Source of the DNA: Parcubacteria group bacterium
GTDB taxonomy: Bacteria; Patescibacteriota; Minisyncoccia; Moranbacterales; GCA-2747515
DNA length: 64,000 nt
Direction of reading: 5' to 3'
NCBI GenBank assembly: GCA_041660065.1
Contig: JBAZXC010000001.1
Location: 392,535 to 456,534, forward strand
Both the position numbers and the translations under genes were made by a program. Each line of letters begins with the position of its first letter. Position 1 is the stretch's first letter. The notes under the pieces are model-generated. The model saw only the letters and a program-made list of their open reading frames with translations. It was not told the origin of the DNA and did not search any database. This document shows, in pieces, positions 1,813 through 58,946 of this stretch.

Positions 1813-2673
1813 TCACGAAATTCTTTCGTCTAAACGCGAAAATAGATTACTAACCATGATCAGCCTACCAAGTGCCTCATGATGCGGCATTTGCTCCTCA
1901 TCTCCATGACTTAGATTATTACGCCACCAAGTCATCAAACCCATTGTCGTAAGCCTAAAACCCATTTGTTCATTAATTTCCTGAGCTGTTTCAAGATTAT
2001 TAAGCTTAATTTTTGGATCATTCTCATTAAACACATTAGCCATCAGTTTTTGTCCATCCATTTTTTTTAACAAAGATAAGTCCTGCACTGTTTTTTCAAA
2101 TTTCTCTAAAGATTTTCTAACAGCTTCATTTAAATGACCATCCACAAACATTTTCTTGCAATCAGGCAAAAGTGTTGGATGCAGAGGAAACGTATCAAGA
2201 ATTTTTTGTACTGCTATTGGTGGTGGAACGATTTTTGGTCTTTGAGTTGGAAGTTTTAATTCTTTAATTTCTTTTTTTAAATCAACTCCTAGTAGAAACA
2301 ATTGACTTGCAAGCTCAGAGGCTTCTTGTTCCAAAATTGGATTTCCTTCCGAATGTCTCTTTTCAATAGCCCTTGGAAGAATTTCGCGAACAATTAACTT
2401 TAAGGTTCGAGGTTTCTCTTTAATAAGATTCCTTATAAAAACAGAAAATGCTTCCTTCTTATTTACTTTTTTTGGAATATATTCCACAAGCCCTCGTGTT
2501 TTTGCAATCGTCATAAGGGAAAATGAGCTTCTATACCCATCTAACGGAATAAGTCTTCCTAACTGTTCAGCGAGGATGCGTATGTTTTGAATATTCGCAG
2601 CGGATAGCATTTTGAATTTTCGCACTTTATTTTTTTTCGAAACAGTCTTGTGATTGCTTTTTCCTAATTTCAT
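1813..2673 (-). CDS. hypothetical protein with C-terminal Abi_C/TIGR02391-like (HEPN-like Rx4H) region
   Basis: 286 aa. The C-terminal roughly 120 aa carry a WRNNLSHG motif (Rx4H) followed by SNLFSRLDE, resembling the HEPN-type Abi_C/TIGR02391 pattern. 66-bp gap to the upstream 409-aa gene on the same strand. The family assignment is from memory, not a search. Confidence 0.4.
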   Translation of the reverse strand: MKLGKSNHKTVSKKNKVRKFKMLSAANIQNIRILAEQLGRLIPLDGYRSSFSLMTIAKTRGLVEYIPKKVNKKEAFSVFIRNLIKEKPRTLKLIVREILPRAIEKRHSEGNPILEQEASELASQLFLLGVDLKKEIKELKLPTQRPKIVPPPIAVQKILDTFPLHPTLLPDCKKMFVDGHLNEAVRKSLEKFEKTVQDLSLLKKMDGQKLMANVFNENDPKIKLNNLETAQEINEQMGFRLTTMGLMTWWRNNLSHGDEEQMPHHEALGRLIMVSNLFSRLDERIS

Positions 2674-2739
2674 AATTTCTTAAACTATTATATGGTTACA
2701 TAAAATCCCGAGACACCTTAGTGACTCGGGATTTTTTTG

Positions 2740-3969
2740 CTATTTTTTCGCCAACTTCTCCTGCAAGGAATGAATGATCACGGTATTTGCAATATTCTGC
2801 CAAAGCACCTTGCTCTTTCCAGTTTTATTAGGGTTACTATTATATTCCCTAGTATGAGCTTCCAAAACTTGTGAGACTATCTTAGATCCGTGCTTATCAA
2901 GAAATTCCTTCGGATCAATCACCCATACATAACATCCATTCTTCTCTTCCAATAGAAATCGAAGGGCTGCAAAAATCGGCATGGAAAAACCCTTTGATAG
3001 TTTATATCCAACAGTCTTGTTTGAGAATGGAAGCTTCACGGTAACAGGCTTCTTGTTATCTCCCCTTCCACGATATTTTTCAACACCGTTTATACCGCCA
3101 AATTTCTTTACACCAACCTCCTTTGCATAACTCTCAAATTTCGAATAGAGGTGCTCATATGTTTCAAGAATTGAGGGGAGTAGCTTATAAAGTTTTTCAT
3201 ACGTAGGTCTGTTTTTTTTATTCAACCATTTAGTAAAACAGGTAGATATTCCGGTATAAGCAACTGTTGGCTGGCTACTACTATCATACAGATCCTTATT
3301 CAAAGCAGTTAGTAGGGCGAGCAATTCCTCTATGGGAAACATCGCCTCATCGCTATCCAAGTTCTCATTCTCAAAATAAATTACCTTTTGACTATAACCA
3401 CCTAGCGCATCCTTGATAGGTAAAAATTCATTATCAAGATTAACTATAGACTTTTCAGTCACCTGAACACTGGTATTCCTTGCTCTTGCCAATTTGGTAG
3501 CAAACCCCTCAGCACCTTCAACAACAGTAATAAATATAGGAAGATCCTCTAATGATTCATCCTCCATTTTCTTCTTTAGAACCGCGTATGTATGTCCACC
3601 ATCAACTAATCCTCCTTTTGGATTTCCGTCTTCATCCACCCCAAAATCAACCAGGATTTTCTTTTCGTCCCCATCTACATTTGGATAGTAGACTTTTTCA
3701 GCAATCAAGACAAGCCCCCTATTGCAGTCTGTAAAATACTCTGGCTCTTGCTCTAACGTGTCAATCATCTGTCGACAAGGCTTTGCGTTAATATCGGGTT
3801 TTCTAGGATTCGGGGTGGTTGGAAAATTATTAGGTAAGTTTTTAAGCAAAATAAAAAGGAAATGAGTTTTAATAACATCGTTTCCCTCAGGATCGTAATA
3901 GTTTAATTTTCTTCCGATTGTTCTTGCTTGAGAGTAGTTAAACTCCAAGACTTGCTTTGTCTGTGACAT
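2740..3969 (-). CDS. hypothetical protein, AIPR-like / ParB-DGQHR-like putative abortive-infection protein
   Basis: 409 aa. N-terminal region has a GLVDGGHTY motif reminiscent of DGQHR/ParB-like or AIPR nuclease-type motifs. Sits beside the tRNA island. The family call is tentative. Confidence 0.35.
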   Translation of the reverse strand: MSQTKQVLEFNYSQARTIGRKLNYYDPEGNDVIKTHFLFILLKNLPNNFPTTPNPRKPDINAKPCRQMIDTLEQEPEYFTDCNRGLVLIAEKVYYPNVDGDEKKILVDFGVDEDGNPKGGLVDGGHTYAVLKKKMEDESLEDLPIFITVVEGAEGFATKLARARNTSVQVTEKSIVNLDNEFLPIKDALGGYSQKVIYFENENLDSDEAMFPIEELLALLTALNKDLYDSSSQPTVAYTGISTCFTKWLNKKNRPTYEKLYKLLPSILETYEHLYSKFESYAKEVGVKKFGGINGVEKYRGRGDNKKPVTVKLPFSNKTVGYKLSKGFSMPIFAALRFLLEEKNGCYVWVIDPKEFLDKHGSKIVSQVLEAHTREYNSNPNKTGKSKVLWQNIANTVIIHSLQEKLAKK

Positions 3970-4114: not shown

Positions 4115-4213
4115 TGCACGGGATGTAGGAATCGAACCTACGCCAAAGGTTTTGGAGACCTCTATACTACACCTGTCACTCACGAGTGACGGGTCGGACA
4201 CTATACGAATCAT
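4115..4213 (-). pseudogene. tRNA-Trp pseudo-copy (29-nt hairpin insertion in D-loop, 5' acceptor strand lost)
   Basis: Identical to the intact tRNA-Trp through the anticodon arm (CCA), T-arm and 3' acceptor strand. The D-loop carries the insert acctgtcactcacgagtgacgggtcggac. The 5' acceptor is replaced by aatgatt. Confidence 0.7.
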
Positions 4214-4216
4214 TTG

Positions 4217-4287
4217 CACGGGATGTAGGAATCGAACCTACGCCAAAGGTTTTGGAGACCTCTATACTACCACTATACGAATCCCGC
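4217..4287 (-). tRNA. tRNA-Trp (anticodon CCA)
   Basis: Cloverleaf folded by hand. Acceptor GCGGGAT/ATCCCGT with G1-U72. Anticodon stem GAGGT/ACCTT. Loop CUCCAAA. T-arm GTAGG-TTCGATT-CCTAC. No encoded CCA. Confidence 0.8.
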
Positions 4288-4295
4288 AATTTTTA

Positions 4296-4550
4296 TTATT
4301 TTAAACCCAATCTCTTCATTAAACTCATATATACCGAACCGCTTGTTTTTAATCCCTTCTCCCTATTACGTGCCAACTGTTCATTTTCAAATGCTTCATA
4401 ATAGATCAGTTCCGGTTTTTTGTTCTTTGTGGTGTTATTTTGTCCTGCACAATGTTGCGCGAGACGTTTACGCAAATCAGCTGTATATCCAATGTAAAAC
4501 TCCTTATCGCCACACTTTTGCAATTTTAGCACATACACATAGTACATCAC
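4296..4550 (-). CDS. GIY-YIG domain nuclease (small YhbQ/UPF0213-like)
   Basis: 84 aa. YVYVLKL...FYIGYTADLRKRLAQH is a canonical GIY-YIG motif. Confidence 0.8.
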   Translation of the reverse strand: MMYYVYVLKLQKCGDKEFYIGYTADLRKRLAQHCAGQNNTTKNKKPELIYYEAFENEQLARNREKGLKTSGSVYMSLMKRLGLK

Positions 4551-4568
4551 AATTTGAATTTATTTCAC

Positions 4569-4629
4569 AGGAGACCTCTATTGCACCTGTCACTCACGAG
4601 TGACGGGTCGGACACTATACGAATCCCGC
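4569..4629 (-). pseudogene. tRNA-Trp 5' fragment (acceptor + D-arm with the same 29-nt insertion, truncated after anticodon-stem 5' strand)
   Basis: Reverse complement reads GCGGGATTCGTATAGTG, then the same insert, then CAATAGAGGTCTCC, then diverges. Confidence 0.65.
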
Positions 4630-5215: not shown

Positions 5216-5447
5216 ATACTTTTTTATAATGTCCTCGTTAAACGTTTTCTCAAATCTTTCTTTTCATCACTACTTTTGAGAAACTTTTCTCTATTCATTG
5301 TTTCTTCTTTGTGTAGATATGCCTCATAACAAATTAATACCACTAGATTCCCGTTTTCACGGGAATGACACTAAAAAATCAACATTAAACAAACCCTTTC
5401 CGTATCAGTATACACTGACAGAAAAAAATAATCAACACGTCTCAAGC

Positions 5448-27311: not shown

Positions 27312-27430
27312 TAGGACTTATGCATTTACATTTAGAAACGTCATTCCGGACTTGATCCGGAATCTAAGATTATACGAACTGATATTTTTTAGATCCTGAC
27401 TCAAACTCAGGGTAACAGGTGCATAAGTCA
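27312..27430. repeat. MITE-like element with TAGGACTTAYGC terminal inverted repeats and two internal hairpins
   Basis: Left TIR ttaggacttatgcat and right TIR tgcataagtca. Internal hairpins attccggacttgatccggaat and cctgactcaaactcagg. Fills the intergenic gap. Confidence 0.5.
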
Positions 27431-29867: not shown

Positions 29868-29939
29868 ATGTTGTTATTTAGCTAGTTATTTATATGCCTG
29901 TATTATACATGCAGTTTTTTATAGTGACAATATCTATCC

Positions 29940-30040
29940 TCGTCATCGCGAGTGAAACGAAGCGATCTTTTTGCAATGTGAAATTCTCGTCGGAGATTGC
30001 CTGCCTACCGGCAGGCAGGCTTCGTTCCTCGCAATGACAG
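29940..30040. repeat. roughly 100-bp imperfect palindrome centred on the GC-rich hairpin CCTGCCTACCGGCAGGCAGG
   Basis: Core at 30000-30019. Outer arms tcgtcatcgcgagtgaaacgaagc and gcttcgttcctcgcaatgacag. Reverse complement of the cores at 31840 and 31931. Confidence 0.6.
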
Positions 30041-31839: not shown

Positions 31840-31859
31840 CCTGCCTGCCGGTAGGCAAG
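31840..31859. repeat. GC-rich hairpin repeat CCTGCCTGCCGGTAGGCARG (copy)
   Basis: Same family as 30000-30019 in opposite orientation. One mismatch. Confidence 0.6.
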
Positions 31860-31930
31860 GTTGAAAATTATACTTGTGTGACCCCACGGAGAAGCTCACA
31901 CGGTGACACATCACCTTTTAAAAACCCACG

Positions 31931-31950
31931 CCTGCCTGCCGGTAGGCAGG
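31931..31950. repeat. GC-rich hairpin repeat CCTGCCTGCCGGTAGGCAGG (copy)
   Basis: Exact reverse complement of 30000-30019. Confidence 0.6.
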
Positions 31951-58443: not shown

Positions 58444-58460
58444 ATAATTCAAAAGGAAAA

Positions 58461-58490
58461 CACATCCTCAAGGGATGTGTTTTTTTATGA
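58461..58490 (+). terminator. rho-independent terminator
   Basis: acacatcctcaagggatgtgt followed by ttttttt. Confidence 0.65.
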
Positions 58491-58508
58491 ACAACTCGCC
58501 GTGGCGAG

Positions 58509-58551
58509 CTTGAACATCGGACATCGTCATTACCCGCCGCGACGGGCGCGC
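58509..58551 (-). pseudogene. tRNA-Ile-derived 3' fragment
   Basis: Matches the 3' part of the pseudo-tRNA-Ile (GCGCGCCCGYCGCGGCGGGTAATGACGAKGTCCGAKGTTCAAG) with substitutions. Confidence 0.5.
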
Positions 58552-58579
58552 TTTGGTTAGCGATTTATTTAAAAATGTG

Positions 58580-58653
58580 TGGGCGATCGAGGACTTGAAC
58601 CTCGGACCTCGTCATTATCAGTGACGCGCTCTAACCACCTGAGCTAATCGCCC
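58580..58653 (-). tRNA. tRNA-Ile (anticodon GAT)
   Basis: GGGCGAT acceptor. Anticodon stem CGTCA/TGACG with loop CUGAUAA. T-loop TTCAAGT. Confidence 0.8.
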
Positions 58654-58680
58654 TTATACTTTTATTCTTTTCTTTCTCCA

Positions 58681-58774
58681 GCGATCGAGGACTTGAACCT
58701 CGGACCTCGTCATTACCCGCCGCGGCGGGCGCGCTCCCTGCCTACCGGCAGGTAACCACCTGAGCTAATCGCCC
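58681..58774 (-). pseudogene. tRNA-Ile pseudo-copy with 16-nt GC palindrome in D-loop and 14-nt GC palindrome replacing anticodon 5' stem/loop
   Basis: GGGCGATTAGCTCAGGTGGTTA, then the insert [CCTGCCGGTAGGCAGG], then GAGCG, then [CGCCCGCCGCGGCGGG], then TAATGACG..., with the 3' acceptor truncated. Confidence 0.65.
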
Positions 58775-58873
58775 GTTAATAAGTAAAAAGTCAAAAGTAT
58801 AAAGTAAAAAGATTTTTTGCAAAACATCCTTCTCAATTTTTTACTTTTAATTTTTGACTTATAACTTATTTTG

Positions 58874-58946
58874 TGGACCGGACAGGACTCGAACCCGCCA
58901 CTTCCTCAGTGCAAGTGAGGCGCTCTACCAGATGAGCTACCGGCCC
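58874..58946 (-). tRNA. tRNA-Ala (anticodon TGC)
   Basis: G3-U70 identity pair. Anticodon loop CUUGCAC. T-loop TTCGAGT. Confidence 0.75.

Follow-up and report, generated by a model that had tools for sequence, protein, structure and literature searches.

Hairpin-plugged tRNA pseudo-copies in a Moranbacteria genome as probable remnants of a small nuclease element at tRNA genes

Results

The tRNA-Ile locus

The DNA analysed here, a stretch of 64,000 nucleotides from a Moranbacteria genome of the Candidate Phyla Radiation (hereafter, the window), carries on its minus strand, in this order, a tRNA-Ala, a disrupted copy of tRNA-Ile (U1), an intact tRNA-Ile(GAT) and a second disrupted copy (U3), and the unit is closed by a terminator-like hairpin:

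58873–58946, minus strand: tRNA-Ala(TGC), upstream neighbour of the Ile module (ARAGORN and Rfam)
58681–58774, minus strand: U1, 5' pseudo-copy of tRNA-Ile (alignment and blastn-short)
58737–58752: 16-nt palindrome CCTGCCGGTAGGCAGG at the 3' edge of the D-loop of U1, member of a small dispersed palindrome family
58716–58729: 14-nt palindrome CCCGCCGCGGCGGG in U1 in place of tRNA nt 30–36, hallmark of the Ile-type GIY-YIG element described below
58579–58653, minus strand: intact tRNA-Ile(GAT) (ARAGORN; Rfam tRNA, 70.4 bits)
58495–58551, minus strand: U3, decayed 3' pseudo-copy of tRNA-Ile (alignment)
58457–58483, minus strand: intrinsic-terminator-like hairpin closing the Ile unit

All pieces described in the initial annotation, an intact tRNA-Ile with disrupted copies on either side, were recovered on the minus strand where it had placed them. 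U1 consists of tRNA nt 1–22, the D-loop palindrome (58752–58737), nt 23–29 (GAGCGCG), the anticodon palindrome and nt 37–71, and both tRNA-derived arms (nt 1–22 and nt 37–71) are 100% identical to tRNA-Ile. As annotated, the anticodon palindrome stands in for gene nt 30–36 (TCACTGA), with which the anticodon loop as far as the second base of the anticodon and three bases on the 5' side of the anticodon stem have been lost; the 16 letters originally printed for it include a palindrome proper of 14 nt. The acceptor of U1 is truncated, its last ~4 nt being gone. On the other side of the tRNA, the further fragment noted before is U3, composed of GCGCG, the imperfect palindrome CCCGTCGCGGCGGG (58533–58546), tRNA nt 37–60 (58509–58532, 91.7% identical to tRNA-Ile) and CTCGCCACGGCGAG (58495–58508), a further palindrome in the T-loop that is found at the same position in the U3 of a metagenome locus, L019.

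Neither U1 nor U3 matched the Rfam tRNA model even at E ≤ 10 or was called by ARAGORN, and searching the Ile region against Rfam produced matches to tRNA only. Considered as tRNA genes, both copies lack an intact anticodon arm with an acceptor stem, and the anticodon is removed. An AATGAC motif is common to other hairpin repeats and the anticodon arm of tRNA-Ile; an early idea was that it might drive microhomology insertion.

The tRNA-Trp module and other tRNA sites in the window

The parallel drawn in the initial annotation between the disrupted copies of tRNA-Ile and tRNA-Trp is real and extends to tRNA-Glu, which is represented by a 3' fragment. The tRNA-Trp site (4116–4629) is an intact element of this kind and contains, between the duplicated tRNA pieces, a small GIY-YIG nuclease gene:

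4570–4629, minus strand: Trp unit A, tRNA-Trp nt 1–17, a 28–29-nt hairpin insert, and tRNA sequence ending at the second anticodon base
4296–4550, minus strand: intact GIY-YIG nuclease gene, 83/84 residues, UPF0213/SLX1-like (Pfam PF01541, E = 1.2e-12)
4216–4287, minus strand: intact tRNA-Trp(CCA), 8 nt downstream of the nuclease ORF (ARAGORN and Rfam)
4116–4211, minus strand: Trp unit B, tRNA-Trp nt 5–17, the same hairpin insert as in unit A, and nt 18–72
5248–5337, minus strand: remnant of the C-terminal part of a further GIY-YIG gene, immediately upstream of tRNA-Thr(TGT)
31878–31893, minus strand: 3'-end fragment of tRNA-Glu (nt 58–73), between two CCTGCC-type palindromes

The 3' part of unit B reaches 32.6 bits against Rfam tRNA. 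The remnant at tRNA-Thr(TGT) was matched in tblastn by 23 GIY-YIG homologue queries (best E = 6e-5) and by HMM (E = 1e-4). The palindromes around the tRNA-Glu fragment lie at 31840–31859 (imperfect) and 31931–31950 (perfect). Overall, the window holds an intact module at Trp, a nuclease remnant at Thr-TGT, and scars at Ile and Glu. The likely driver, the small GIY-YIG gene within the Trp duplication, which occurs also at the Ile site of sister genomes, had gone unremarked in the earlier reading. An AIPR gene lies downstream of the Trp module, as does a TIGR02391 gene.

The orthologous Ile site in relatives

Scanning a genome collection with MurD yielded six loci, sufficient for a presence/absence series and too few for statistics. 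The site downstream of murD is empty in four relatives (L007, L091, L094 and L095), with tRNA-Ala, tRNA-Ile and the terminator in succession, and is occupied in two closer relatives (L006 and L002) by a GIY-YIG gene of 83 residues directly after tRNA-Ile, followed by a partial tRNA copy that in both genomes bears the same palindrome as the window. L006 has the order tRNA-Ile, GIY-YIG ORF 3 nt later, U3, and L002 has U1', tRNA, GIY-YIG ORF, U3'. The nuclease gene is therefore polymorphic at one orthologous site, being present in L002 and L006, reduced to a remnant of the module in the window and missing in the four other relatives. In the window, the nuclease ORF expected between tRNA-Ile and U3 is absent and has left no trace at this locus; its former presence is deduced from homology with L002, L006 and another locus, L021. 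Between L006 and L002, the GIY-YIG proteins share only 49% identity, compared with 82–88% identity of MurD to that of the window, a comparison made at one site.

Mis-joined or collapsed repeats could in principle generate such an arrangement, a worry already raised in the initial annotation, and one Logan k-mer assembly of the same organism does collapse U1 onto the tRNA, joining it directly to the tRNA 3' flank via a 35-nt repeat. This is how a shared repeat of 35 nt is expected to behave at short k, so that the collapse proves neither possibility, and the same architecture recurs in three independent assemblies of a sister species (L002–L004) and in dozens of unrelated metagenome contigs. 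An assembly artefact was accordingly rejected and has a negligible probability.

Survey of metagenome loci encoding nuclease homologues

We surveyed 80 metagenome loci encoding homologues of the nuclease, a sample that, having been chosen through the nuclease, does not yield the fraction of pseudo-tRNAs with this origin. A same-strand tRNA gene lies at most 150 nt away in 59 of the 80 loci and three more are second copies in arrays; among the other 18, at least nine have tRNA fragments adjoining the ORF. Partial tRNA copies are present in 54 of the 80. Linkage to tRNA genes was also seen in three further look-ups, in Zixibacteria, Omnitrophota and Magasanikbacteria. The intact form of the module comprises a 5' tRNA pseudo-half with a hairpin, an intact tRNA and a nuclease gene of ~85 codons in either order, and a 3' pseudo-half with the same hairpin. 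Nuclease subfamilies follow tRNA isoacceptors: for 40 of 53, the nearest GIY-YIG relative has the same isoacceptor and gene order.

The breakpoints of the partial copies cluster at the anticodon, between positions 35 and 36. Of the 55 matched segments from Ile partial copies, 29 begin at canonical position 36; the partial copies of Ser-GGA and Glu-TTC and unit A of the window's Trp module end at position 35. In most Ile-type loci, tRNA nt 37–75 are repeated past the ORF with 100% identity, forming a direct repeat of the 3' part of the tRNA. The extent of U1 and U3 is highly variable; either is often missing, gains further insertions or decays, and U1 is lacking from the occupied loci L006, L014, L017, L023 and L024. 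Tandem arrays were found in L016, L020, L022 and L024, and decayed copies in L013, L028, L079 and the first copy of L017. L070 and L072 differ in copy number, a difference left out of the evidence because the junction in L070 contains an N.

The partial copies are mostly 100% identical to the adjoining intact tRNA; the pseudo-halves of four to six loci are another allele than that tRNA. In L012, L019, L021 and L028, the 5' acceptor strand of U1 pairs with the 3' acceptor strand of U3, unlike the intact tRNA between them. With the divergence of the GIY-YIG proteins at the murD site, these other-allele halves are what a check for co-conversion and incongruence revealed.

The same data bear on the possibility that no mobility is involved. 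The nuclease gene would then be an ordinary one, expressed as part of tRNA operons, and partial copies would come from local slippage or from unequal recombination at tRNA loci, which are rich in repeats and highly transcribed. The usual identity of the copies to the neighbouring tRNA, the tandem arrays and the tight embedding of the ORF in the tRNA transcription unit would all be compatible with such an origin. It is nonetheless unlikely, given that the orthologous site is empty in four relatives, that GIY-YIG identity at that site is far below that of MurD (more than 80%), that alleles are discordant, that the Ile module is found with varied upstream neighbours (Val, Ala or none) and that decayed copies exist.

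The anticodon palindrome and the end of the nuclease ORF

The anticodon palindrome does not represent an insertion of its own: it belongs to the conserved make-up of the nuclease element and encodes the last codons of the ORF before the stop. Where the Ile-type element is intact, ..ARxG[GE] of the nuclease is read from the 14-nt palindrome, after which comes a TAA stop supplied by the anticodon loop. The ORF ends TGG TTA GAG CGC G(CC CGC Cnn GGC GGG) TAA in 14 of 18 loci (palindrome in parentheses), that is, with tRNA nt 17–29, the palindrome and the anticodon-loop TAA, so that the end of the ORF overlaps tRNA-like sequence. The stem of the Ile-type palindrome is 99.2% paired and, in U1 as well as in U3, undergoes compensatory changes between CCC/GGG, CTC/GAG and TTC/GAA that alter the last amino acid of the nuclease; the equivalent hairpin of the Lys type covaries as well.

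Maintenance of the stem in U1 and U3 by compensatory changes, despite the change in protein, would be expected if the hairpin-bearing tRNA-like pieces were functional RNAs under selection (for example, decoys, or signals that govern how the nuclease mRNA is processed or stabilised) rather than scars, and the bracketing of U1, tRNA-Ile and U3 in the window by a promoter-like site and the terminator fits the same idea. We regard this as very improbable, because U1 and U3 vary in extent, are often absent, accumulate insertions and decay, and single-strand folding of U1 and U3 of the window is no better than that of shuffled sequences (z = -1.7 and +0.5).

The CCTGCC..GGCAGG palindrome family

The membership of the D-loop palindrome in a CCTGCC..GGCAGG repeat family found elsewhere in the window was borne out: four perfect sites and one imperfect site (31840–31859) occur in the 64 kb, compared with none expected from shuffles, and the family was found in 13 other loci. 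On unrelated contigs, pseudo-tRNAs for Ile, Lys and Arg, an Ala-like copy and a pseudo-tRNA of one more isotype carry the form CCTGCC(TGCC)GGYAGRCAGG at the 3' edge of their D-loop, and CCTGCCGGTAGGCAGG itself occupies the same tRNA position in L021, L036, L037 and L069. Other settings of the palindrome are T-loops, loops formed by other inverted repeats, and ordinary intergenic DNA; within tRNA genes, it was seen in pseudo-copies only and in no functional tRNA. Its insertion is polymorphic: the U3 of L006 lacks it, L022 has it in the T-loop, and the window, L021 and, in degenerate form, L002 have it in the D-loop. The CCTGCC..GGCAGG palindrome is best read as a separate small dispersed repeat, distinct from the nuclease element.

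Very small dispersed palindromic repeats are known, among them the SDR elements of cyanobacteria, REP sequences and the GC clusters of mitochondria. Like these, the family described here is a GC-rich, multi-copy palindrome of 12–20 nt that shows insertion polymorphism and nests in the loops of other repeats; it differs in belonging to another sequence family and in its striking preference for loop positions of pseudo-tRNAs.

Of the initial proposal, a hairpin element that targets tRNA D-loops or integrates at tRNA genes, the part that stands is that tRNA genes are the target of a mobile-looking element, and pseudo-tRNAs of five isotypes in unrelated organisms do share the palindrome at the 3' D-loop edge; the palindrome is not specific to D-loops. 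Were the nuclease gene incidental and the main cause a miniature hairpin element inserting autonomously into tRNA D-loops, the identical palindrome at the same edge of pseudo-tRNAs on unrelated contigs and the excess of perfect sites in the window would be explained. Hairpin insertion leaves unexplained the duplicated tRNA halves, the ORF-forming anticodon palindrome, the nuclease linkage in 59–62 of the 80 loci and the isoacceptor specificity. Moreover, L006 has the module without a CCTGCC palindrome, and the same palindrome is found well away from D-loops, all of which makes this explanation improbable.

The nuclease

The homologues have 79–90 residues (~85) and consist of the catalytic domain only, with no DNA-binding domain for a long recognition site. 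They match Pfam PF01541 at E = 1e-12 to 9e-14, and Y5, Y15, G17, R25, H29 and E67 are invariant in 20 sequences. Compared with PDB, the nuclease profile hit 1zg2 (5.6e-13), 1ywl (3.6e-10), SLX1 (9e-7), I-TevI (0.013) and UvrC (0.02), and the structure model of the nuclease of the Trp module (4296–4550; pLDDT 81.6) has as its best fold matches UPF0213 BH0048 (1zg2), At-HIGLE (TM 0.70) and SLX1. The nuclease belongs to the UPF0213/SLX1-like branch of the GIY-YIG superfamily, its nearest solved relatives being UPF0213 and SLX1, not I-TevI or UvrC.

NCBIfam has no specific family for the Ile-type nuclease. Searches of phage and plasmid collections gave no phage match and one weak plasmid match, and hence no sign of phage origin. 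In a public protein collection, the nuclease profile recovers at least 2,548 protein clusters at E ≤ 1e-10, many family members being encoded on very short contigs. A literature search of limited scope found neither a description of a tRNA-nested nuclease module nor a paper that connects UPF0213 or small GIY-YIG genes with bacterial tRNA genes.

Discussion

A probable decayed selfish element and its possible mode of spread

Judging from these sequence comparisons, the Ile locus of the window is probably what decay has left, without the nuclease, of a very small selfish element that colonises tRNA genes. Direct observations are the module, its tight and isoacceptor-specific linkage to tRNA on the same strand, and the anticodon breakpoints, as are the overlap of the ORF end with tRNA-like sequence and the palindrome, the presence/absence difference at one orthologous site and the pseudo-halves that are another allele than the intact tRNA.

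We infer from this organization that the element may spread by homing. The nuclease would break a resident tRNA gene near the anticodon, between positions 35 and 36, and repair from an element-bearing copy, with the two halves of the tRNA as homology arms, would leave the resident gene split and plugged by the palindrome, which would destroy the target. The element would bring a working tRNA along with the nuclease gene, and the nuclease would be co-transcribed with the tRNA and probably translated from a leaderless mRNA after tRNA 3' processing. Tandem arrays of U1, or of nuclease and U3, could result from re-cutting and unequal recombination, and recombination between the direct repeats could account for loss of the element. 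At the Ile locus of the window, the nuclease ORF appears to have been deleted, and the dead halves would then have gained CCTGCC..GGCAGG in the D-loop and CTCGCC..GGCGAG in the T-loop.

Several features temper this scheme. The intact tRNA of the element keeps the presumed target sequence, so that simple homing logic predicts self-cutting, and a protein that consists only of the catalytic domain, unlike sequence-specific GIY-YIG homing enzymes with their DNA-binding domain, likewise counts against homing. Because U1 is missing in several occupied loci, the picture of a split resident gene either is not universal or has been erased there by recombination, and the 100% identity usual between pseudo-halves and intact tRNA could stem from gene conversion and not from a recent insertion.

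Comparison with known systems

The phage protein SegB has ~220 residues and includes a DNA-binding part. In phages T4 and T6, it is a free-standing GIY-YIG homing endonuclease encoded in tRNA gene clusters that shows a statistical association with tRNAs, drives the segmental amplification of repeats containing tRNAs and is inherited together with its neighbouring tRNAs (PMC2330249, PMC13096335). SegB recognises a specific 27-bp DNA sequence (PMC2330249), its recognition site includes a conserved tRNA-gene motif (PMC2330249, PMC13096335) and it is not isotype-specific (PMC13096335). The nucleases described here share with SegB the setting of a GIY-YIG gene among tRNA genes, and the module shows the presence/absence polymorphism of a SegB-like homing gene and no DNA-binding domain. 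Unlike SegB, they are encoded on the chromosome, consist of an ~85-residue catalytic domain of the SLX1/UPF0213 branch and gave no phage matches; each lineage is tied to one isoacceptor, and hairpin-plugged tRNA halves flank the ORFs, which themselves overlap tRNA or tRNA-like sequence.

In fungal mitochondria, free-standing GIY-YIG ORFs bring the end of their target gene with them and displace the resident end, as in Allomyces atp6. Both systems would combine a selfish nuclease ORF with a replacement for the disrupted part of an essential gene, the displaced part decaying as a pseudogene; the mitochondrial targets are, however, organelle protein genes, whereas the module described here supplies a whole tRNA gene, and both displaced halves persist with conserved palindromes. 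The split tRNA genes of Nanoarchaeum equitans consist of halves broken near the anticodon with GC-rich sequence able to pair with the partner. The halves described here are similarly broken and adjoined by GC-rich pairing sequence but, lacking nt 30–36 including two anticodon bases, are unable to make a working tRNA, and they have an intact tRNA gene between them.

Group I introns with homing endonucleases occur in the anticodon loops of bacterial tRNA genes, where the anticodon loop is likewise the insertion point of a nuclease-bearing selfish element (PMC3984707). Unlike the introns, the present module has no ribozyme and no splicing, and rescue would come from a second, intact gene copy.

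Partial tRNA copies also arise by integrase-mediated integration of islands or prophages (10.1101/2022.07.05.498093). A direct repeat of the tRNA 3' part around inserted DNA is the classic signature of that process (10.1101/2022.07.05.498093) and is found at the far end of the present inserts, and the AIPR and TIGR02391 genes downstream of the Trp module would fit a larger island or prophage whose insertion and excision left attL/attR-type scars. The DNA between the repeats is only 30–400 bp, however, holding the GIY-YIG ORF or nothing, no recombinase is encoded, 5' halves are duplicated too and the breaks fall in the anticodon or D-loop, with palindromes. This alternative was rejected for lack of a recombinase and because the inserts are far too small, and its probability is close to negligible.

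Implications

Beyond the probable reading of the Ile locus as a remnant, a broader proposal is tentative: that the module is an unrecognised minimal selfish class in the Candidate Phyla Radiation and other uncultured phyla, in which an SLX1-like nuclease would cut a tRNA gene at the anticodon, leave the resident gene as hairpin-plugged halves and supply a functional tRNA in a hostage or addiction strategy. If so, the element would measure about 0.3–0.45 kb, the supplied tRNA might be the only copy in the cell, such that a cell without the element would be deprived of an essential tRNA, and split and permuted tRNA genes could arise naturally by the same process, which would also provide a first biological role for the large orphan UPF0213 family.

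An odd pseudo-tRNA has provided a handle on a widespread module, one without a description in the literature searched, and tRNA genes offer a testable biological context for the uncharacterised UPF0213/SLX1-like mini-nucleases. The module accounts for pseudo-copies at tRNA loci in genomes of uncultured bacteria, and the very short contigs of many family members may mean that assemblies break at these repeats. For annotators, tRNA-like fragments and short 'hypothetical' ORFs at such sites belong together, and the proposed cutting would be a concrete candidate mechanism for the splitting of tRNA genes at the anticodon.

The tRNA-Ile locus in the window

The tRNA-Ile region contains two partial tRNA copies around an intact gene, arranged as follows:

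58946-58873, minus strand: tRNA-Ala(TGC), first in order
58774-58681, minus strand: U1, the 5' pseudo-copy of tRNA-Ile, a 27-nt spacer separating it from the intact gene
58653-58579, minus strand: intact tRNA-Ile(GAT), followed by 27 nt of unrelated sequence
58551-58495, minus strand: U3, a decayed 3' pseudo-copy and the last tRNA-derived piece
58483-58457, minus strand: terminator-like hairpin beyond U3

The spacer between tRNA-Ala and U1 is AT-rich and holds one promoter-like site. U1 consists of tRNA nt 1-22, CCTGCCGGTAGGCAGG, GAGCGCG (nt 23-29), CCCGCCGCGGCGGG in place of nt 30-36, and nt 37-71, with 100% identity to the intact gene in both tRNA-derived arms. U3 consists of GCGCG, CCCGTCGCGGCGGG, tRNA nt 37-60 (91.7% identity) and a T-loop palindrome, CTCGCCACGGCGAG. 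Neither unit produced a tRNA match, even at E<=10. The initial annotation described an intact tRNA-Ile beside a copy disrupted by palindromes and truncated in its 3' acceptor, with a further fragment on the other side; this arrangement holds, all pieces being on the minus strand, with two palindromes in U1, whose tRNA sequence stops at nt 71, and with U3 (58551-58495) as the fragment.

MurD, encoded beside the locus, assigns the window to a metagenome-assembled Parcubacteria/Moranbacteria genome (contig of 469 kb) and was used to fetch relatives, for which MurD identities to the window are given. In four of them (L007, L091, L094, L095; 77-80%), the site comprises only tRNA-Ala, tRNA-Ile and the terminator and is empty. 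In L006 (82%), an 83-residue ORF begins 3 nt past tRNA-Ile and continues into an incomplete copy of the tRNA, with the junction ...GAGCGCG CCCGCCGCGGCGGG TAA TGACGAGG...CCCA. Three independent assemblies (L002, L003, L004; 88%) carry an upstream U1 counterpart, the tRNA, the ORF and a U3 counterpart bearing the 3' arm of the CCTGCC..GGCAGG palindrome. The comparison with sister genomes that the initial annotation suggested shows presence/absence polymorphism of the module at this site, empty in four relatives and occupied in L006 and L002-L004. The ORF encodes a GIY-YIG domain (Pfam, E=9e-14), and the L006 and L002 versions are only 49% identical. No nuclease ORF remnant was found at the window's tRNA-Ile locus by tblastn or HMM; since L002-L004 and L006 carry the ORF and the window does not, the window holds a shell (U1 and U3) without it, and comparison with these relatives suggests that an ORF was formerly present. 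Two Moranbacteria-like assemblies, L005 and L009, are publicly labeled "Micavibrio sp.", at odds with their MurD similarity to Moranbacteria, which looks like a taxonomic mislabel.

An intact module at tRNA-Trp

The intact form of the module, a GIY-YIG nuclease ORF and an intact tRNA between hairpin-plugged tRNA pseudo-halves, lies at tRNA-Trp:

4629-4570, minus strand: unit A, comprising tRNA nt 1-17, a 28-29-nt hairpin insert and tRNA sequence to the second anticodon base
4550-4296, minus strand: GIY-YIG ORF, between unit A and the intact tRNA
4287-4216, minus strand: intact tRNA-Trp, between the ORF and unit B
4211-4116, minus strand: unit B, comprising tRNA nt 5-17, the hairpin insert of unit A and nt 18-72

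The suggested parallel between the Trp and Ile loci is exact, units A and B both being tRNA copies with a hairpin insert. Directly downstream (1813-3969, minus strand), an AIPR-family protein (PF10592, E=8e-25) is encoded together with a TIGR02391-family member, each of a kind typical of defence/mobile islands; in many bacteria, secE-nusG follows tRNA-Trp at the corresponding position. Two further traces occur in the window:

5337-5248, minus strand: GIY-YIG C-terminal remnant directly upstream of tRNA-Thr(TGT), a gene separate from the Trp ORF
within 31840-31950, minus strand: 16-nt tRNA-Glu 3'-end fragment, about 190 nt downstream of the intact gene

With the Ile shell, the Trp module, the Thr-adjacent remnant and the Glu fragment, 4 of the 8 tRNA genes in the window therefore bear traces of the module. 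The Glu fragment is flanked by two CCTGCC-type palindromes, one imperfect (31840-31950), and neither a nuclease ORF nor a remnant of one was found beside it.

Distribution of the module

Metagenome contigs were scanned with an alignment of three module nucleases, yielding 80 loci. In this sample, selected through the nuclease, a same-strand tRNA lies within 150 nt of the ORF in 59 loci, 3 more represent second copies within tandem arrays that follow tRNA-Ile, and of the other 18, at least 9 show tRNA fragments next to the ORF. Nearly all tRNAs (100/101) are on the strand of the ORF, and 54/80 loci contain partial duplicates of the neighbouring tRNA, most of which match it at 100% identity. All 19 closest homologues follow tRNA-Ile(GAT) regardless of the upstream neighbour, and other subfamilies pair with Lys-TTT, Ser-GGA, Glu-TTC, Arg-ACG, Asn-GTT, Gln, Cys, Pro and Ala-GGC; isoacceptor and gene order are both shared with the nearest protein relative in 40 of 53 cases. 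The G+C content of the loci ranges from 30 to 64%. At E<=1e-10, the family comprises at least 2,548 clusters, of 79-90 residues, with named members in Moran-, Magasanik- and Falkowbacteria, Zixibacteria and Omnitrophota. The module was present in all three further loci looked up, of which the Zixibacteria one has the full module for tRNA-Ser (5' pseudo-half with two hairpins, GIY-YIG gene, tRNA-Ser, 3' pseudo-half with two hairpins).

In the Zixibacteria contig L096 (1380-2470), a single tRNA-Ser(GGA) lies between two distinct GIY-YIG genes, of 83 and 80 residues, and is accompanied by three Ser pseudo-copies that bear hairpins or are truncated; this tRNA seems to have been colonised on more than one occasion. 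Upstream of tRNA-Ala(TGC), too, there are pseudo-copies, whose hairpin inserts reach from the D-loop to the anticodon region (L014, 1357-1421; L079, 2129-2191; L028, ~1300-1345); none of these three loci showed a nuclease gene linked to Ala-TGC. The Lys modules of L054 and L055 (pseudo-half, nuclease, tRNA) are 92% identical and colinear, and because their flanks are inverted and rearranged relative to them, rearrangement breakpoints at the module edges are suggested. Very short contigs of 0.5-2 kb carry many of the family members; metagenome assemblies may often break at these repeat-rich modules.

Overlap of ORF and tRNA sequence

In most Ile-type loci, the start codon lies 0-3 nt past the tRNA 3' end, which leaves no space for a promoter or ribosome-binding site; we therefore infer that nuclease and tRNA are co-transcribed and that 3' processing of the tRNA yields a leaderless mRNA, from which the nuclease is translated. 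The Ile-type C-terminus, ..GREWLERARxG[GE]-stop, is encoded by TGG TTA GAG CGC G(CC CGC Cnn GGC GGG) TAA, that is, tRNA nt 17-29, a 14-nt palindrome (in parentheses) and the anticodon-loop TAA, beyond which lie tRNA nt 40-75. The palindrome has three versions (CCCGCC..GGCGGG, CTCGCC..GGCGAG and TTCGCC..GGCGAA), is 99.2% paired and shows both-sided changes at two of its pairs, one of them silent on one arm and Gly to Glu on the other; the Lys-type hairpin likewise covaries. We conclude that the anticodon-region hairpin is selected as structure, not as coding sequence, because the changes are paired, the same 14-nt hairpin is kept in non-coding U1, and ORFs truncated by CCTGCC insertion (L020, L021) or without U3 (L018) have unrelated tails.

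Where the nuclease is upstream of the tRNA (L029, L054, L055, L099), the last ORF codons and the stop lie within the 5' end of the intact tRNA, as in ..L G P stop (TTG GGC CCG TAG, with TAG the conserved U8-A9-G10), so that one DNA stretch serves both protein and tRNA.

Breakpoints and origin of the pseudo-halves

In canonical tRNA numbering, position 36 is the first base of Ile partial copies in 29 of 55 matched segments, and position 28 is where such copies stop; Ser-GGA copies break off at 35 and resume at 36, and Glu-TTC copies, like the window's Trp unit A, stop at 35. Thus, the anticodon is the recurrent break, usually between its second and third base. Arg and Gln copies restart at 37; Lys copies differ (23 and 32).

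In L012, L019, L021 and L028, the U1 5' acceptor strand pairs with the U3 3' acceptor strand, and the intact tRNA between them is a different allele; in L020 and L079, U3 is foreign. On the simplest reading of these sequences, U1 and U3 would be two halves of one former gene, and the intact tRNA and nuclease gene would have arrived together. The identity of the repeats may alternatively reflect gene conversion. Against joint arrival through cleavage and homing, the intact tRNA retains the presumed target sequence, and several loci lack U1; direct-repeat recombination, which would cleanly delete U1 or the ORF, fits both the latter loci and the empty sites. Tandem units of U1 plus spacer (L016, L020, L022) and of nuclease plus U3 (L017, L022, L024) could stem from repeated cutting or from unequal recombination between repeats.

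The CCTGCC palindrome

The window contains four perfect CCTGCC..GGCAGG sites and one imperfect, with none expected, and the U1 insert belongs to this family, as initially assigned. The palindrome is absent from the L006 module. It recurs at the D-loop edge across isotypes (the window, L021, L036, L037 [Lys], L069 [Arg] and the Ala-like copy of L028), in keeping with the proposal of a D-loop-targeting hairpin element; restriction to D-loops did not hold, however, since it also occurs in a T-loop (L022), nested in loops of other inverted repeats (window 29931-30040, L054, L082) and in plain intergenic DNA (window 7503). In L021, it is present in both U1 and U3 and truncates the ORF. Its behaviour is that of a very small dispersed repeat in its own right, lodging in dead tRNA copies with a preference for loop positions. 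Other small GC-rich hairpin repeats, of the form GATTCC-stem-loop-stem-GGAATGACR, occur at 5340-5370, 27339-27370 and 29931-30040, the last being an inverted repeat of ~110 nt whose loop contains the CCTGCC palindrome; they end in AATGAC, a motif that the anticodon arm of tRNA-Ile also carries on its 3' side.

The nuclease and related systems

A protein profile built from 20 sequences matched UPF0213 BH0048 (5.6e-13), EF2693 and SLX1 (9e-7), with weak matches to I-TevI and UvrC, and a structure model of the window's protein (pLDDT 81.6) matched BH0048, At-HIGLE (TM 0.70) and SLX1; titles of the matched PDB entries mention branched and 5'-flap DNA. SLX1 enzymes are structure-specific, which fits our conjecture that this catalytic domain, without a DNA-binding module, acts on hairpin- or cloverleaf-forming tRNA-gene DNA.

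Of the systems described so far, phage SegB comes closest: this GIY-YIG homing enzyme resides in tRNA clusters and has a site that takes in the TpsiC motif (PMC2330249); it is statistically associated with tRNAs and causes segmental amplification (PMC13096335). Partial tRNA copies have otherwise been credited to integrases (10.1101/2022.07.05.498093). In the literature searched, no paper tied UPF0213-type genes to tRNA genes, and the module nuclease had no phage protein matches. We therefore file the module under the free-standing homing-endonuclease theme, in which it would cleave and home, although it differs in its minimal SLX1-like nuclease, its fidelity to one isoacceptor, the overlap of its ORF with tRNA or tRNA-like sequence, the hairpin-plugged tRNA halves and the replacement tRNA that travels with the nuclease.
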